From the UHGV virus genome UHGV-0115960: a stretch of DNA of 38,642 nucleotides. The stretch is one strand, 5' to 3'. Below, in pieces: positions 2,618-36,983 of this stretch (position 1 is the stretch's first letter; every line of letters begins with the position of its first letter). The notes below the pieces were generated by a model. That model was not told the DNA's origin and made no database searches. It saw only the letters and a list, made by a program, of their open reading frames with translations. Source of the DNA: a virus. The position numbers and the translations under genes are program-made.

Positions 2618-4891
2618 TCATTTTTCTAACTCTGAAATACGAGACTCCAATTCTTCTAATCTTAACAACAAACGATCAAAATTCCTTCGCTGAAGTTTAG
2701 CTTCCAGTGCAAAAGCCTCCTCATAACGTATTCCATACTTAGAACCTGATTTTCTTTGTGGGATAATAACTTCATCGTAAGCCTGATAGCCAGGTATAAG
2801 TTCTCCATTTTCACTAATTCTGTCAGGTGCGGCATCGTGATGCTGGATGACCTCTTCCTGATCACCCCATTCGTCATGGCATGCAAATCCGAACTTAAAT
2901 GCATCAATTCCATGACGTTCAAATGCCTCAATAGCTCTCTGGGCCACAACACCAAAGTGCCATCTAGCTTTTTCACCTTTTTCTTCAACACTTTCCAAAA
3001 ATTTATACTGACACCAATTTACTTCAGACCAAGCATCAAGCATGGCATCTGAGATATCTATAGGTTTTGTTTTGTATGTTTCATCCGATGTAACTATGAA
3101 AGCGGTTTGGGTAAATCCGCCAGACCACGCAGATGCTGAATCTCCACACAAATATTTGTTTGTGGCTGACGGTTTTATAGTCTTAGTAACTGTTTCTTTG
3201 CAGGTAATCTCAGCAACGGCATCATTAGCAACACCATCCTCCCCACCAATAAAGCGAATTACTCCGCTTGGAATATTTGTGTTTAAACCGGTATGAGCGC
3301 GTATCTGACGTACACCGGAAGAGCCAAGCCTTGCTAGTTTTATATCACTAGTAAGGAAAGTGTTTGTATCTGAATCCATAACCCAATATCTGGTATTGGT
3401 GCCACTATCAATAATGTCATTATTTAACTGCACCCCGATTCTCTGATTACCATATACTTGATTGTTAATAGCGCCATTTGAAATTACCACTCCTCGCGTC
3501 ATTCTGTTAATTACGGGGTTTGCAATTGTATTGTTAGAAGCAGAACGAGTTCCAGTTGCATTTTGTCTTAATCTAGTGTGCGTAGCATCTTTTGTGAACC
3601 CTGTTAAAAGCACTTCATTAGAAGACAAAACATTATAATCAGAGCAAATATCAAACCCAATATATGGAGTACCAGAATCACCATCACGGTTAAAAACAAT
3701 GCAGAAGTTATTGGCAATCTTGCAATGATTGCTACCTAATCCAGCGCCCTCACCAAGCTCAACAGCAGAAATAGATGTATTTATATGGTTCCCAAGGATG
3801 AAAATCATATTCCCACCTGTATCGTGAGAGACGATACCTCGTTGACCTGCGATGATGTGGTTAAATGCTACCGTAACCCCCTCTGAACTGCTAGTTACAT
3901 CCATAAATTGAATAAAATCACTAGCGCAACCGTTCGTGAAATTGATATCCCTAGACTGGTTTGTCACCCTGATACAGCAGTTTGTTGGCATGTCATCAAG
4001 TCCGCTCATTGAGCAGTGATCCATAAATACCTGGCTTGCTTTATCTAGGTGGACGCAACAGTCCCATCCGAACATGCCAGTTTCATCATTCGCAAACAGG
4101 ACATCAGTTAGTTTTAATTGTTCGCCGTATTTTGCTGTATGTGTTCCGGTGAACATCAATGCTGTAGCATCTCGATCTCCTCTCGTTCGAAATGATGTGT
4201 TAATAATGCGCATTGCCTTCCTGGTTCCAGAGATAGATGAATTATCTACAATCATTCCAAACCCTGAATCAAATATTATTCCAGTATTACCTTGTGAAAG
4301 ACCAAATATGTCGGAAGTAAACGCAGTAAGCACTATATTTTGGGAGCATTTATATAGCCGGGATAACTTTACGCTTACACCCATTGTTTTTGCTGTCTCG
4401 AAGGCGTCAATAAGTGCTTGGGTATCTGATGATGATATTATATTAGTGGCACCATACATTTCTGGTGATACGTATGGCATTTCATTGTATAAATTAGATT
4501 TCCCTATTCCTACTAATGATGCGCCATGGTTACCTGCTAGTTCACTTCGCAGTTGATCAGGGTCATACTTCAGTATATTTGGAAAATAGAACTGCTGCGT
4601 ACCATACGCATCATAAACAGCCATAGAATGGCCTTGCACGGTTACGAATTTGGCAATCTGTCCGTTATATACCGGATATCCAGCAGCATTAATGATGATT
4701 GGTTGCGAAACAGGAACGTGAGAGCCGTCTTCGTTCTCTATATAAACCTGAATCTGGTTTTCAGGATTTACCGGGTCCGTGTCAATTTTACCGATATAAA
4801 TTTTGCCATTAGCTACAGCTTTAAAAGAACGCGCCATAGTGAAGAGTTGCGAAGGCATCGATACGATCACATTGGCTGTAATGTCTGTCAT
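2618..4891 (-). CDS. Tailspike protein: P22 gp9-like N-terminal head-binding domain, divergent central receptor-binding domain, C-terminal peptidase S74-like intramolecular chaperone
   Basis: N-terminus [13 protein letters not shown]...[38 protein letters not shown] closely matches recalled P22 tailspike; C-terminus [20 protein letters not shown]...RWHFGVVAQ resembles the autoproteolytic chaperone motif of endosialidase-type fibers; terminal coiled coil. Confidence 0.9.
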
Positions 4892-30889: not shown

Positions 30890-31642
30890 GTGATGGAGTG
30901 CGTAGCGAGCAGCAATAGTGCAATACCTAATGTCGTTGAGGTAATACGTCGCATCAATGAAGGTTCCACTCAGCCATTTCTTTGCAAATGTGATGATGGG
31001 CAGTTGTATGTTTTGAAGTCAAAACCATCAATGCCCCCGAAAAATCTCTTAGCTGAGTTCATTTCGGCGTGTTTGGCTAATGATATCGGCCTTCCTTTAC
31101 CTGACTTTAAAATCGTATTTGTGCCAGAGGAACTTATAGAGTACTCACCTGATCTGCAGCAACAAATTTGTACAGGATATGCCTTTGCTTCATTGTTCAT
31201 TGACGGTGCAATAGCGTTAACGTTTACGCAGTCAAGAAACGAAACGATCATCCCAGTCGAACAGCAAAAATTAATCTATGTTTTTGATAAATGGATATTA
31301 AATGCAGACAGAACGCTTACTGACAAAGGTGGAAACGTTAACATCCTTTATGACATCAGTAACGATAAGTATTATCTGATTGACCATAATCTCTCATTTG
31401 ATCAGAATGCTGGACCTGAAGATTTTTCTGTGCACGTGTACGGCCCTGGTAACCGCAAATGGCAATATGATTTAGTGGATCGCGTAGAGTACCGCCAGAG
31501 GGTCGTTAACAGTTTACACAAGCTTCCTGCTATCCTTGACGAAATTCCAGAAGAGTGGATAGTAGATGAGGAGTTTTTACCTTTTGTCTGCACTACGCTA
31601 GACAAAGGTGATTGTGATGAATTTTGGAGCGCAATAGAATGA
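30890..31642 (+). CDS. Protein-kinase-like fold protein (HipA/aminoglycoside-phosphotransferase-like catalytic motifs), 250 aa, downstream of cI
   Basis: Candidate catalytic loop TDKGGNVNIL and downstream LIDHNLSFD about 20 residues later; candidate ATP-binding Lys in LYVLKSK; lower GC than backbone. Confidence 0.55.
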   Translation: MMECVASSNSAIPNVVEVIRRINEGSTQPFLCKCDDGQLYVLKSKPSMPPKNLLAEFISACLANDIGLPLPDFKIVFVPEELIEYSPDLQQQICTGYAFASLFIDGAIALTFTQSRNETIIPVEQQKLIYVFDKWILNADRTLTDKGGNVNILYDISNDKYYLIDHNLSFDQNAGPEDFSVHVYGPGNRKWQYDLVDRVEYRQRVVNSLHKLPAILDEIPEEWIVDEEFLPFVCTTLDKGDCDEFWSAIE

Positions 31643-32466
31643 CAACTCCATGCCTATATAGCATCGTTCGCTATGCGCCTTATGCGGAGACTGAAGAGTT
31701 CGCAAACATAGGCGTACTTCTGTGCGCGCCAAAAGAAAATTACTTTGATTTCCAGCTCACAAAGCGAAATGACTCTCGTGTAAAGAATTTTTTCCATGAT
31801 GATTGTATTTTCCCTGTAGCAAAAGACTCAATACAAAGAGAACTACAGTTCGCAAAAATGCATGCGACCCAGATTGTTGGACATCAACAACTTGCACAAT
31901 TCTTCAGATATTTTACAAACAAAAAAGAATCAATTTTTCAGTTCAGTTCTACGAGAGTGATTCTCAGCGAAAACCCAAAAGAAGAGCTGGCCCGCATTTA
32001 CAATAAATATGTAAACCACTCTGACTACACAAAAGAGCGCCGTGAAGATGTTCTAGCCAGAGAGCTAAAACGAAGTATCGATAGAATAGATGGATTGAAG
32101 AACCTCTTCAAACAAGCAACCATTGATGGGTATTTCGCAAAGTTCTCAATGCCATTGGTCGCCAAGAAGCATGACAGGATCCAATGTGCCATCAAACCTC
32201 TGGCATTCACTCAAGCTGAACCAGGAAAAATGATGGAGCATAGTGATACTTGGGTGATGAGAATAACTCGAGCAGCAGAAGAAAACCTGCTTTCACTTGA
32301 TGACATTTTATTCACAATTGAAACTCCTGAATCACCAAACTCAGGCCAAAGCAAAGTTATTGACATCATAAAGAGAACTATGGATGCTAAGAAAATAAAT
32401 CATATACCTGCATCCAACCACAAAGAAACTATTGATTTTGCAAAAAAAATACTTCCCCAAGTTTAA
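31639..32466 (+). CDS. DUF3037-like protein (275 aa), translationally coupled to the kinase-like gene
   Basis: N-terminal YSIVRYAPYAETEEFANIGVLL resembles DUF3037 signature (from memory); ATGA start/stop overlap with upstream gene. Confidence 0.6.
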   Translation: MTTPCLYSIVRYAPYAETEEFANIGVLLCAPKENYFDFQLTKRNDSRVKNFFHDDCIFPVAKDSIQRELQFAKMHATQIVGHQQLAQFFRYFTNKKESIFQFSSTRVILSENPKEELARIYNKYVNHSDYTKERREDVLARELKRSIDRIDGLKNLFKQATIDGYFAKFSMPLVAKKHDRIQCAIKPLAFTQAEPGKMMEHSDTWVMRITRAAEENLLSLDDILFTIETPESPNSGQSKVIDIIKRTMDAKKINHIPASNHKETIDFAKKILPQV

Positions 32467-32770: not shown

Positions 32771-33181
32771 TTGAATTTCAGCAGGCTTCGGGGAGTGCGA
32801 GGGGTGAAACGGACGCGTGAACGTCGGTGTGACCAGCTGAAATCAACACAACACTTTATACCTCAGTCGCTTCAAGGAGGCGGCTTAGTTATGACAACCG
32901 GCGGCCATCCACCGCCTGAATACGCGCAGAAGTCTCTATATGTTCAGCAGCCCAGCTTACGGGCAGGAGTTTTTATGGTTCATCAACATTACGGAACGCA
33001 GACCGTTAATCGCGGTGCGGTCATGCCAGGAATGCTGGTCAAACACAAAGATGGTACCTGGACTGCATCAGCTAATTTACGCGGACGGCTTTATCTGCAT
33101 CGCGGCATCGAGCGCACTTATACCCGTGACTTGCTCGTGGAAGTTTTTCTCGACGGACGCGGCAACGGCCTGAATCACTAA
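32771..33181 (+). CDS. N-like antiterminator (arginine-rich motif near N-terminus); start uncertain (TTG 32771, GTG 32795 or 32804)
   Basis: Arg-rich motif [14 protein letters not shown] resembles N-protein ARMs; first gene after pL-like region. Confidence 0.5.
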
Positions 33182-33558: not shown

Positions 33559-34344
33559 ATGAGTACAGCACTCGCAACGCTGGCTGGGAAGCTGGCTGAA
33601 CGTGTCGGCATGGATTCTGTCGACCCACAGGAACTGATCACCACTCTTCGCCAGACGGCATTTAAAGGTGATGCCAGCGATGCGCAGTTCATCGCATTGT
33701 TGATCGTCGCCAACCAGTACGGCCTTAATCCGTGGACGAAAGAAATTTACGCCTTCCCTGACAAGCAGAACGGCATCGTTCCGGTGGTGGGCGTTGATGG
33801 CTGGTCCCGCATCATCAATGAAAACCAGCAGTTTGATGGCATGGACTTTGAGCAGGACAATGAATCCTGCACATGCCGGATTTACCGCAAAGACCGCAAT
33901 CATCCGATCTGCGTTACCGAGTGGATGGATGAATGCCGCCGCGAACCATTCAAAACCCGCGAAGGCAGAGAAATCACGGGGCCGTGGCAGTCGCATCCCA
34001 AACGGATGTTACGACATAAAGCCATGATTCAGTGTGCCCGTCTCGCCTTCGGATTTGCTGGTATCTATGACAAGGATGAAGCCGAGCGCATTGTCGAAAA
34101 TACCGCATACACTGCAGAACGTCAGCCGGAACGCGACATCACTCCGGTTAACGATGAAACCATGCAGGAGATTAACACTCTGCTGATTGCCCTGGATAAA
34201 ACATGGGATGACGACTTATTGCCGCTCTGTTCCCAGATATTTCGCCGCGACATTCGCGCATCGTCAGAACTGACACAGGCCGAAGCAGTGAAAGCTCTTG
34301 GATTCCTGAAACAGAAAGCCACTGAGCAGAAGGTGGCAGCATGA
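33559..34344 (+). CDS. bet: Bet (Red-beta single-strand annealing protein)
   Basis: 261 aa near-identical to recalled lambda Bet ([48 protein letters not shown]...). Confidence 0.97.
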
Positions 34345-35021
34345 CACCGGACATTATACTGCAGCGTACCGGGATCGACGTGAGAGCTGTCGAACAGGGG
34401 GATGATGCATGGCACAAATTACGGCTCGGCGTCATCACCGCTTCAGAAGTTCACAACGTGATAGCAAAGCCCCGATCAGGAAAGAAGTGGCCTGACATGA
34501 AAATGTCCTACTTCCACACCCTGCTGGCTGAGGTTTGCACCGGTGTGGCTCCGGAAGTTAACGCTAAAGCGCTGGCCTGGGGAAAACAGTACGAGAACGA
34601 CGCCAGAACCCTGTTTGAGTTCACTTCCGGCGTAAATGTTATTGAATCCCCGATCATCTATCGCGACGAAAGTATGCGCACCGCCTGCTCTCCCGATGGT
34701 TTATGCAGTGACGGCAATGGCCTTGAGCTGAAATGCCCGTTTACCTCCCGGGATTTCATGAAATTCCGGCTCGGTGGTTTCGAGGCCATAAAGTCGGCTT
34801 ACATGGCCCAGGTGCAGTACAGCATGTGGGTGACGCGAAAAGATGCCTGGTACTTTGCCAACTATGACCCGCGTATGAAGCGTGAAGGCCTGCATTATGT
34901 CGTGATTGAGCAGGATGAAAAGTACATGGCGAGTTTTGACGAGATGGTGCCGGAGTTCATCGAAAAAATGGACGAGGCACTGGCTGAAATTGGTTTTGTA
35001 TTTGGGGAGCAATGGCGATGA
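34341..35021 (+). CDS. exo: Exo (lambda exonuclease, Red-alpha)
   Basis: 226 aa near-identical to recalled lambda Exo ([40 protein letters not shown]...). Confidence 0.97.
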
Positions 35022-35176
35022 AGCATCCTCACGATAATATCCGGGTAGGCACGATCACTTTCGTCTACTCCGTTACGAAGCGAGGCTGGGTATTTCCCGG
35101 CCTTTCTGTTATCCGAAATCCCCTGAAAGCACAGCGGCTGGCTGAGGAGATAAATAATAAACGGGGAGCTGTATGA
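35018..35176 (+). CDS. Small protein (52 aa), DUF1317-like, translationally coupled to exo and to the methyltransferase
   Basis: Not in ORF track (<60 aa); ATGA overlaps at both ends; sequence [52 protein letters not shown]. Confidence 0.5.
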
Positions 35177-35730
35177 CTGATTTCACCGGAAGCAATACTC
35201 CTGCCGAACATCGCGACAGCTGGCGCACACCACCAGAGATTTTTGCTGCGCTTAATGCAGAGTTCGTTTTTCAACTTGATGCTGCCGCCAGCGAAAAAAA
35301 CCGACTATGTCGGCTTTTTATCTCACAGGAGCAGAACACATTAACCACTTCATGGCCTGAAGCAATGGGATATGCCTCTGGTTATGTCTGGTTGAATCCA
35401 CCATACAGCAATATTTCCCCTTTTGTGAAAAAGGCAGCCACTGAAAACAAATTCAGCAGTGTGGGATGTGTAATGTTATTACCTGCTGACACATCTGTCG
35501 GATGGTTTCATGAAGCGATACAAACCGCCAGTGAGGTCAGATTCATCACGGCAGGACGACTGGCATTTATTAACCCACTCACCGGGAAACACGTCAGTGG
35601 AAATAATAAAGGCTCGATGCTCATTATCTGGCACCCATACCCCCGTACACACTGCCACTTTACGACCGTTGATCGTGGAGAGTTGATGGCGTTCGGCTCA
35701 AGGATTCTTGCCCGTCGGGAGGCTGCATGA
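35173..35730 (+). CDS. DNA N6-adenine methyltransferase (phage Dam family)
   Basis: Catalytic NPPY motif (VWLNPPYSN) and N-terminal WRTPPEIF. Confidence 0.85.
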   Translation: MTDFTGSNTPAEHRDSWRTPPEIFAALNAEFVFQLDAAASEKNRLCRLFISQEQNTLTTSWPEAMGYASGYVWLNPPYSNISPFVKKAATENKFSSVGCVMLLPADTSVGWFHEAIQTASEVRFITAGRLAFINPLTGKHVSGNNKGSMLIIWHPYPRTHCHFTTVDRGELMAFGSRILARREAA

Positions 35731-35810
35731 CAACCACGGAATGCATTTTTCTGGCAGCGGGCTTCATATTCTGTGTGCTTATGCTTGCCGACATGGGACT
35801 TGTTCAATGA
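35727..35810 (+). CDS. Putative 27-aa hydrophobic membrane micro-protein
   Basis: Not in ORF track; MTTTECIFLAAGFIFCVLMLADMGLVQ; ATGA overlaps with upstream and downstream genes. Confidence 0.35.
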   Translation: MTTTECIFLAAGFIFCVLMLADMGLVQ

Positions 35811-36022
35811 CACCTCAGCAGGAAAACGCCCTTCGCAGCATTGCCCGTCAGGCTAATTCTGAAATCAAAAAAGCCAGACAGCAGTTTCCGGATAAAAACG
35901 TCGATGACATTTGCCGTAGCGTACTGAAGAAGCACCGCGAAACGGTAACGCTGATGGGATTCACACCGACTCATTTAAGCCTGGCGATCGGCATGTTAAA
36001 CGGCGTCTTTAAGGAGCGATGA
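35807..36022 (+). CDS. Hypothetical protein (71 aa from ATG at 35807)
   Basis: ORF-track frame; ATG overlapping stop of the micro-ORF; no family recognised. Confidence 0.5.
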   Translation: MTPQQENALRSIARQANSEIKKARQQFPDKNVDDICRSVLKKHRETVTLMGFTPTHLSLAIGMLNGVFKER

Positions 36023-36043
36023 ACATGAAAAGCAAAATCATCA

Positions 36044-36068
36044 GGGAGCTACAGGCTCCTTTTTTATT
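36044..36068 (+). terminator. Rho-independent terminator within early-left operon (tL-like)
   Basis: GGAGCtacagGCTCC followed by TTTTTTATTATT. Confidence 0.6.
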
Positions 36069-36120
36069 ATTCGCATTCACCCTCAAGCGTATTAACCAAC
36101 AATTCAGGGATTAATGGAAG

Positions 36121-36342
36121 ATGGCAGACATCATTGATTCAGCATCAGAAATCGAAGAATTACAGCGCAATACAGCAATAAAAATGCGCCGCCTGAACCA
36201 CCAGGCTATATCTGCCACTCATTGTTGTGAGTGTGGCGATCCCATAGATGAGCGAAGACGCCTGGCCGTTCAGGGTTGGCGGACTTGTGCAAGTTGCCAG
36301 GAAGATCTGGAGCTTATCAGTAAACAGAGAGGTTCGAAGTGA
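36121..36342 (+). CDS. TraR/DksA-family C4 zinc-finger protein
   Basis: CCECGDPIDERRRLAVQGWRTCASCQ four-cysteine motif in a 73-aa protein. Confidence 0.8.
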   Translation: MADIIDSASEIEELQRNTAIKMRRLNHQAISATHCCECGDPIDERRRLAVQGWRTCASCQEDLELISKQRGSK

Positions 36343-36983
36343 GCGAAATTAACTCTCAGGCACTGCGTGAAGCGGCAGAGCAGGCAATGCATGACAACTG
36401 GGGATTTGACGCGGACCTTTTCCATGAGCTGGTAACACCATCGATTGTGCTGGCACTGCTGGATGAACGGGAAAGAAACCAGCAATACGTCAAACGCCGC
36501 GACAATGAGAACGAGGATATTGCACTAACGGTAGGGAGGCTGAGAGTTGAGCTGGAAGGCAAAGACAGCAAGATAGCCAATCTTACCGCCGAACGCGATG
36601 CTCTTCGTGAAGGTGAGATGGGCGACGCTAGGCATAGCAACACACGGGCCGCAGCTGATATCTACTTCCAACTGGTCGAGGAGTGCGAAATTCCTGCTGG
36701 CGGATCTCTGGTCGAGTACGTTGACGATATGCGCGAGAAGCTGGAAGCCGCAGAGAAGCGCATTGCAGAGTTAGAAAGTGGTTCTCAGGCACAAAAGTTA
36801 GTTGAAGCAATCATTGTTGCGATAGAAAACGAACAGGAAAGGCTTTTTGATGAAGATTACCTAATGGATTCGAAAGAATGCATTGACGTAATTCGTGAAG
36901 AAGTAAAGCGATGGAATGATTCCCGTGCCGCTGGCATTCGCATCAAAGGAGACGCAGGAGAACAAAACGATGAAAAACCGTAA
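36339..36983 (+). CDS. Ead/Ea22-like protein (coiled coil)
   Basis: N-terminus MSEINSQALREAAEQAMHDNWGFD typical of Ea22-like prophage proteins (from memory); heptad-rich middle. Confidence 0.65.
   Translation: MSEINSQALREAAEQAMHDNWGFDADLFHELVTPSIVLALLDERERNQQYVKRRDNENEDIALTVGRLRVELEGKDSKIANLTAERDALREGEMGDARHSNTRAAADIYFQLVEECEIPAGGSLVEYVDDMREKLEAAEKRIAELESGSQAQKLVEAIIVAIENEQERLFDEDYLMDSKECIDVIREEVKRWNDSRAAGIRIKGDAGEQNDEKP

Follow-up and report, generated by a model that had tools for sequence, protein, structure and literature searches.

The block of small genes between exo and xis in the pL operon of phage lambda, also called the "bin" region and made up of orf60a, orf63, orf61, orf73 and ea22, has reportedly been treated by Sergueev in 2002 and by the laboratories of Wegrzyn and Donaldson. 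Translational coupling through overlapping stop and start codons (AUGA or UGAUG) is the other point of reference, and is known from trpE-trpD, trpB-trpA and many phage operons. We have analysed the equivalent block in a window of 38,642 nucleotides (nt), the whole stretch presented above from virus genome UHGV-0115960, and have focussed on an open reading frame (ORF) of 27 codons, here called orf27, that lies immediately upstream of orf61. Judging from the substitutions found among related sequences, orf27 is probably a genuine protein-coding gene, and its recognition as such underneath the mis-extended orf61 of lambda and of the Shiga toxin (Stx) phages appears to be new.

The interval is recognizable as the exo-xis block of a lambda-type Escherichia coli prophage, part of a pL operon that is under N antitermination. 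Its DNA is 97-99% identical to that of lambda and Stx phages, save for a methyltransferase gene of 558 base pairs (bp) that is missing from lambda. As in lambda, the block comes after gam-bet-exo and before xis/int, on the same strand and in the same operon, and orf60a, orf61, an ORF of 31 amino acids (aa), orf73 and ea22 are all found here too. Unlike lambda, the window has a 185-aa Dam-family methyltransferase in place of orf63, an orf60a cut to 52 aa (60 aa in lambda) and an intact 71-aa orf61, the 61-aa orf61 annotated in lambda being frameshifted. The published gene list lacks the 27-codon ORF. The arrangement in which the methyltransferase takes the place of orf63 is found in ca. 244 of 5,426 complete E. 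coli genomes; the module as such is carried by roughly 3,600 complete genomes of this species. The chain of genes, orf60a, the methyltransferase, orf61, the 31-aa ORF, orf73 and ea22 were all known already, as were four of the five genes named in an earlier note made from the letters of this DNA, and coupling by ATGA is routine in phages. The two features on which the argument turns are these:

35727-35810, plus strand: orf27, a hydrophobic ORF of 27 codons (MTTTECIFLAAGFIFCVLMLADMGLVQ) with ATGA at both ends, probable gene.
35807-36022, plus strand: orf61 in its 71-aa form, predicted three-helix protein (RefSeq 71 aa, phrog_303, AlphaFold).

The peptide is not peculiar to this window. An identical one is encoded in lambda (31008-30925), where its ORF is ATGA-coupled both to the stop of orf63 and to the MTPQQ... 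start, and also in Phi24B (4347-4264). The curated or RefSeq records that we inspected (lambda, 434, lambda imm434, PhiR30_1, PhiR47_2, Phi24B and two PGAP genomes) do not annotate it. It does appear as "hypothetical protein" in one UniRef entry and in certain older automatic annotations, and ca. 980 contigs have the exact sequence among their called genes. The peptide sequence was not found in the literature searched. The earlier note had described this ORF as hydrophobic and unannotated, and both descriptions hold, the second in the sense that annotation usually misses it. Its Kyte-Doolittle mean over 19 residues is 2.33, which ranks third among the 173 ATG-initiated ORFs of 20-40 aa in the window, and the two that score higher both lie inside larger ORFs. 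The product would be a small, very hydrophobic and probably membrane-embedded peptide. A good Shine-Dalgarno sequence (GGGAGG, with a 5-nt spacer) precedes its ATG in this window. Scans against Pfam, NCBIfam, PHROGs and PADLOC gave nothing significant.

The case for orf27 rests on how it has been conserved. It has 27 codons with ATGA at both ends in 208 of 210 loci, and 181 of the 210 encode the identical peptide. No insertion or deletion was found in ca. 295 sequences except for one Escherichia lineage (see below); by comparison, an insertion in an A-run within orf61, as seen in lambda, occurs in ca. 20 of those ca. 295. Four different 3' ends are found upstream (those of two orf63 alleles, of the methyltransferase and of the E1V33 gene), and the ATGA junction persists behind each of them; the point at which homology between lambda and the methyltransferase arrangement breaks is exactly the orf27 ATG. 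In the sample used for polymorphism (274 sequences, 103 haplotypes), the orf27 frame has 14 synonymous and 13 non-synonymous events where 25% synonymous would be expected (p = 0.0024), with substitutions at the three codon positions in the ratio 6:6:15. Variants seen at least twice give 11:7 synonymous to non-synonymous (p = 0.001), and the summed allele counts are 380 synonymous vs. 40 non-synonymous, every common allele being silent. The crude omega, ca. 0.3, equals that of orf61 treated alike. Synonymous enrichment was absent from the other two sense frames of the segment (p = 0.7-0.8). Conservation of the reading frame in related prophages, together with a synonymous-site pattern, had been put forward in the earlier note as the check on such small ORFs, and the 27-codon ORF displays both. 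It is most likely under purifying selection.

The 71-aa ORF that follows, listed in the same note as a link of the chain, is the known orf61. Its product matches phrog_303 (E = 5e-36) and is 100% identical to proteins of Stx phages, RefSeq/PGAP annotates it as 71 aa in relatives, and 30 of the 55 events in its frame are synonymous (p = 3e-6). We found 19 remote homologues (32-65% identity) in a library of representative proteins, and tblastn against phage records places such proteins in phages of Klebsiella, Vibrio, Enterobacter and Yersinia. They measure 69-78 aa, save for P0138 with 89 aa, and all begin at the position that aligns with M1 of MTPQQ. For P0133, the one with 65% identity, its own locus is absent from the viral collection. 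Some divergent Orf61 proteins (51-73%) were considered as deep relatives and discarded as artefacts, two of them (L229 and L230) coming from indel-ridden assemblies and the third (L231) from an insertion of an insertion sequence (IS). L229 (GCA_002230785.1, NLPJ01000020.1) has single-base deletions every ca. 60 nt with respect to the window, which looks like an artefact of line wrapping or file handling. Modelled with the alignment of remote homologues, the 71-aa Orf61 is predicted to form three helices (AlphaFold pLDDT, the predicted local distance difference test, 87.8). Foldseek returned no significant structural match in PDB (all E > 1), which also disposes of a homeodomain assignment, and no sequence relative with a solved structure was found. 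Many NCBI records (NC_011356, NC_004913 and NC_008464 among them) call this protein "cell division protein ZapA". The ZapA profile (PF05164) gave 16.1 bits, below its cut-off of 23.8, there was no NCBIfam hit, and no ZapA was among the Foldseek PDB matches; the name appears unfounded.

Published versions of orf61 are longer. That of lambda has 61 aa (103 aa without the frameshift), vb_24B_7c of Phi24B has 93 aa from an internal ATG, and that of E. coli B has 104 aa. Most likely, such annotations extend the N-terminus of Orf61 by translating the orf27 segment in the wrong frame. In lambda there is a second complication, as its reference sequence has seven A where this window (35866-35872) and most relatives have six, which shifts the frame of orf61 after 22 codons. 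The lambda locus (L001 2045-2131, lambda ca. 30925-30839) carries this frameshift, and the other carriers are lambda imm434, lambda-type contigs in unrelated assemblies and a few viral contigs. The 61-aa "orf61" of lambda is accordingly chimeric, with an N-terminus in the wrong frame, then 22 true codons, then a shifted tail. The lambda-type frameshift allele is also present in most of the hits to non-Escherichia genomes (L008-L021), labelled Shewanella, Bradyrhizobium, Pseudomonas, Paenibacillus, Kitasatospora, Oceanobacillus and others; the length of ca. 48 kb that several contigs have fits lambda control DNA contaminating the assemblies.

A number of observations weigh against orf27 being a gene for a membrane peptide. 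The related sequences are all 95-99% identical and not phylogenetically independent, some loci are duplicated, and the test is based on 27 events only. The uninterrupted apolar run is of 15 residues (C6-L20), or 21 if D22 is counted, which is atypical for a membrane anchor, and the peptide has neither K nor R, has E5 and D22 and a net charge of ca. -2, and so departs from the positive-inside rule; insertion into the membrane is less than certain because of the missing basic residues and the embedded Asp. In lambda the sequence preceding the ATG is a poor Shine-Dalgarno. The lambda ribosome-profiling study, as a review summarises it, lists extra ORFs of 7 and 31 aa, and none of 27 aa (PMC8614690). 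In Escherichia sp. E1V33 (L007 1395-1525) orf27 is lost to a deletion of 14 nt, after which the coupled ATG reads in frame into orf61 and gives a fusion of 93 aa; the peptide is therefore dispensable in that lineage. Finally, the remote orf61 loci of Klebsiella, Vibrio and Enterobacter phages lack the 27-codon ORF, and in three Klebsiella phages orf61 is ATGA-coupled directly to the gene upstream. The E1V33 lineage is the only one found without orf27 among the close relatives, and its upstream gene is a different one, ending in ...LTEAA*.

The last of these points also indicates where orf27 comes from. The Klebsiella phages RothD, KpnBHU6 and 6 LV-2017 resemble the window in having an orf61-like gene of 72-73 aa downstream of exo in the same operon, coupled by ATGA to an upstream gene that ends in ...(R/T)EAA*, with GGAGGCAGC before the ATG; in RothD this upstream gene is annotated as an N6-adenine methyltransferase. 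They differ in that no 27-codon ORF stands between the upstream gene and orf61. These Klebsiella genes (L234 848-1722, L235/L236 965-1719) and the methyltransferase of the window share their 3' end, ...(R/T)EAA* and GGAGGC(A/T)GCATGAC, which suggests an ancestral junction of the form upstream gene, ATGA, orf61 that predates the insertion of orf27. A DNA search reaching down to ca. 65% identity found no relative below 95% (only matches of 95-99%). As the remote relatives are without it, orf27 is a lineage-specific insert, and the comparisons make it a young one, of ca. 80 nt and confined to the lambda/Stx module of E. coli.

The way in which such an insert would work can be outlined. At each AUGA overlap a ribosome that ends one cistron would begin the next with no need of a strong ribosome-binding site, so that the small cistrons would be expressed in step with exo, while RNA polymerase modified by N would read through the terminator-like hairpins at 35082-35104 and 36043-36071. 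The insert of ca. 80 nt would sit between orf61 and a varying upstream gene with the AUGA coupling kept on both sides; orf27 would begin at the stop codon of the gene before it and end on the start of orf61, its translation handing ribosomes over to an orf61 whose own Shine-Dalgarno is weak (GGGA, 8-nt spacer). A weak start reached from orf27 fits such a relay. The layout of the genes, their conservation, the polymorphism peculiar to one frame and the start of Orf61 at MTPQQ are what the sequences show; translation, re-initiation and membrane insertion of orf27, as well as any effect on the host, are what we infer from them.

This mechanism contains in itself the alternative that survives best, namely that orf27 is translated only to pass ribosomes on and that the peptide is functionless and degraded. 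The preservation of ATGA at both ends in every upstream context speaks for it, together with the weak Shine-Dalgarno of orf61 and the lack of any family membership. The Klebsiella phages, with orf61 coupled directly to the upstream gene, imply that inserted DNA must preserve the coupling, and the E1V33 lineage loses the peptide and keeps the coupling. However, a relay needs no more than an open frame, and yet the amino acids of orf27 are as strongly conserved as those of Orf61; the silent nature of the common alleles and the identical peptide at most loci point the same way. This constraint on the amino acids argues that the peptide has a role of its own as well, and we consider a purely relaying orf27 unlikely.

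It is very unlikely, in our opinion, that the 84-nt segment is no gene of its own and forms the N-terminus of a longer Orf61, as the published annotations have it. It is true that every sequence keeps the +2 frame open from the internal ATG at 35741 onwards, the long form is used by several GenBank records and by PHROG profiles, and the E1V33 deletion sets the coupled ATG in frame with orf61. However, in that frame the segment shows 6 synonymous and 20 non-synonymous events plus one stop (p = 0.71). The stop allele, G35738T, is carried by 47% of the sequences and lies upstream of the internal ATG, while the upstream ATG used in lambda is AAC in ca. 20% of the sequences and is absent from this window. 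The common start of the remote homologues and the 71 aa given by RefSeq/PGAP agree with the short form, and according to a published review residues 1-23 of the long form are inconsistent between predictors (PMC8614690). Against dual coding, the segment, with 0.35 events per nt vs. 0.26 in the 71-aa ORF and 0.37 in the 31-aa ORF, is not less variable than its neighbours.

That orf27 is a chance frame in a conserved non-coding spacer, or that an antisense ORF (35660-35794, minus strand) or some element in the RNA or DNA accounts for the constraint, is highly improbable: the ORF is admittedly short, is exceeded in hydrophobicity by two others, and is accompanied by a weak synonymous excess in the phase-matched antisense frame (10 of 27, p = 0.05) and by a weak sigma-70-like match on the minus strand (35733-35704), but the sense signal is the stronger one (p = 0.002) and antisense frames sharing third positions are expected to echo it, the antisense ORF would extend into the 3' end of an upstream gene that varies between phages, the segment folds no better than shuffled sequence (z = 0.06), and its length and both junctions are nearly invariant.

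If orf27 is taken as a gene for a hydrophobic peptide, the obvious comparison is with the small single-helix membrane proteins of E. coli, such as YohP (27 aa), and with type I toxin peptides such as IbsC, ShoB, DinQ and TisB. These have 19-30 aa with a dominant apolar core and are usually missed by gene callers, all of which would apply to orf27 as well. Unlike them, orf27 has no basic flanking residues, and it has neither sequence similarity to them nor a family hit. No sign of an antisense RNA of the type I kind was seen at orf27, the weak promoter-like match apart, although no specific search for one was made. The suggestion in the earlier note that the peptide could be Kil-like or toxic finds no support, as it matches no Kil, toxin or defence family (the Pfam scan gave no hit to the Kil family, PF06301), lacks basic residues, and coexists with a separate gene at the Kil position. 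A gene annotated as cell-division inhibitor in the closest relative matches 32975-33181 of the window and is presumably Kil, from its place just upstream of gam. Like lambda Kil, a host-killing inhibitor of FtsZ, orf27 would be a small product of the pL operon; Kil is not known to be a membrane peptide.

The remaining features of the chain are as follows:

33559-34344, plus strand: bet, RecT-like annealing protein (annotated as bet in relatives).
34341-35021, plus strand: exo, lambda exonuclease of 226 aa (annotated as exonuclease in relatives).
35018-35176, plus strand: orf60a homologue (DUF1317) of 52 aa (PF07026, phrog_1998, alignment to lambda).
35082-35104, plus strand: terminator-like hairpin inside orf60a (lambda equivalent ca. 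31287-31265 by coordinate mapping).
35173-35730, plus strand: phage N6-adenine DNA methyltransferase (Dam family) of 185 aa (PF05869, TIGR01712, PADLOC orphan methyltransferase).
36019-36114, plus strand: ORF of 31 aa, or of 29 aa from the ATG at 36025 (lambda 30715-30620 has the identical ORF).
36043-36071, plus strand: terminator-like hairpin (8 bp) and T-run inside the 31-aa ORF (-10.2 kcal/mol, z = -2.4).
36114-36137, plus strand: ORF of 7 codons (MEDGRHH; MKDGRHH in lambda), joined by TAATG to the stop of the 31-aa ORF and extending across the start of orf73.
36121-36342, plus strand: orf73, TraR/DksA-type zinc-finger regulator (PF01258, E = 1.7e-8; annotated in relatives).
36339-36983, plus strand: ea22-like gene (PF13935, E = 1.4e-19).

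The earlier note had described a chain of genes in the early-left (pL) operon, running from exo through the 52-aa ORF, the Dam methyltransferase and the 27-aa ORF to the 71-aa ORF and joined by ATGA. As far as gene arrangement is concerned this is borne out, and all the overlaps are where they had been placed, with ATGA at 35018-35021 (exo to the 52-aa ORF), 35173 (to the methyltransferase), 35727 (to the 27-aa ORF) and 35807 (to the 71-aa ORF). The chain is longer than had been said. Upstream, the bet stop overlaps the exo start through an ATGA at 34341; downstream, an ATGA at 36019 joins the 71-aa ORF to the 31-aa ORF (for which Shine-Dalgarno spacing favours the ATG at 36025), a TAATG at 36112-36116 overlaps the stop of the latter with the start of the 7-codon ORF, and a GTGA at 36339 joins orf73 to ea22. 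Mononucleotide shuffles of the window contain ca. 10 isolated ATGA or GTGA junctions between ORFs per strand (both ORFs of at least 25 codons); an unbroken run of six to seven ORFs joined end to start is no chance product. This architecture is ordinary for a phage operon, as four-base overlaps are frequent throughout this phage. It resembles trpE-trpD or trpB-trpA in its four-base overlaps between successive cistrons and in downstream starts with a weak or misplaced Shine-Dalgarno (orf61, and orf27 in lambda). It differs in being unusually long, with micro-ORFs of 27, 31 and 7 codons as links. One of the junctions is allele-specific, as 23 of the 25 relatives with the methyltransferase have a G-run one base shorter, which gives an orf60a of 53 aa and an overlap of 8 nt with the methyltransferase in place of the ATGA.

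The 52-aa ORF had also been taken for an unannotated micro-protein, and this did not hold. It is lambda orf60a, with 118 bits (cut-off 22.3, E = 1.5e-34) against positions 1-52 of the 60 of the DUF1317 profile PF07026 and E = 3e-33 against phrog_1998, and its start overlaps the exo stop by ATGA as that of lambda does. RefSeq annotates the 53-aa allele in relatives, and the exact 52-aa sequence is on 562 contigs. The hairpin within it, which by position we take to be lambda tL3, coincides with a misc_recomb feature of lambda (31266-31267). The gene has been studied genetically (PMC6213356). Its C-terminus is shorter than the 60-aa form of lambda because the methyltransferase module starts there. 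In the alignment with lambda, this module occupies the place of orf63, its limits being precisely the 3' end of orf60a and the orf27 ATG. With 191 bits against PF05869 (cut-off 28.1, E = 1.7e-56), 169 bits against TIGR01712 (cut-off 97) and the catalytic (D/N)PPY motif present as NPPY in its translation (...GYVWLNPPYSNISPF...), the 185-aa ORF is identified by homology as a Dam-family phage N6-adenine methyltransferase.

Downstream of orf61, the 31-aa ORF is identical to the sole 31-aa ATG ORF of the lambda block. According to a review, two extra translated ORFs of this block, "orf2311" and "orf2313", with 7 and 31 aa, emerged from ribosome profiling of lambda (PMC8614690). From its size, the 31-aa ORF is probably "orf2313", and the 7-codon ORF may be "orf2311". 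The coding signature of the former is weak (10 of 31 events synonymous, p = 0.19). The hairpin and T-run at 36043-36071 correspond to a terminator, "t2", that has been predicted between orf61 and orf73 (PMC4195576). As they fall inside an ORF that is reportedly translated, terminator and coding sequence overlap here. For lambda Orf73, a function has been demonstrated (PMC9239242). On the other side of the block, the closest relative has the gene order S24 repressor, HipA-kinase/DUF3037 pair, cell-division inhibitor, gam, bet and exo. In the window, genes for a HipA-family kinase and a DUF3037 protein lie at ca. 30890-32466 (plus strand), between the S24 repressor and kil/gam (from the annotation of L233 7394-8967), and the pair may constitute a moron of toxin or defence type within the immunity region.

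The consequences reach to published mutants. Those in which orf61 was deleted remove orf27 as well, since the lambda orf61 (31024-30839) contains it, and vb_24B_7c of Phi24B (4052-4333) covers its codons 6-27. That orf27 encodes a functional membrane micro-protein behind part of the phenotypes credited to orf61 or "bin" is a tentative idea that we consider rather doubtful; if true, it would concern host survival, the frequency of lysogenisation, the timing of prophage induction, and the block to host replication or cell cycle. If orf27 is real, the orf61 annotations of lambda, Phi24B and 933W-type phages would be wrong at the 5' end, and the lambda copy would additionally be a frameshift pseudogene. 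The phenotypes of the published deletion mutants would then not be assignable to Orf61 alone, and structural modelling of "Orf61" should take the 71-aa form. Lambda is the reference temperate phage, and the exo-xis block is conserved in Shiga toxin phages, where it influences induction and hence the release of toxin. In addition, orf27 would be an example of a tiny cassette of ca. 80 nt that can be inserted into a coupled operon with the stop/start overlaps kept on both sides.

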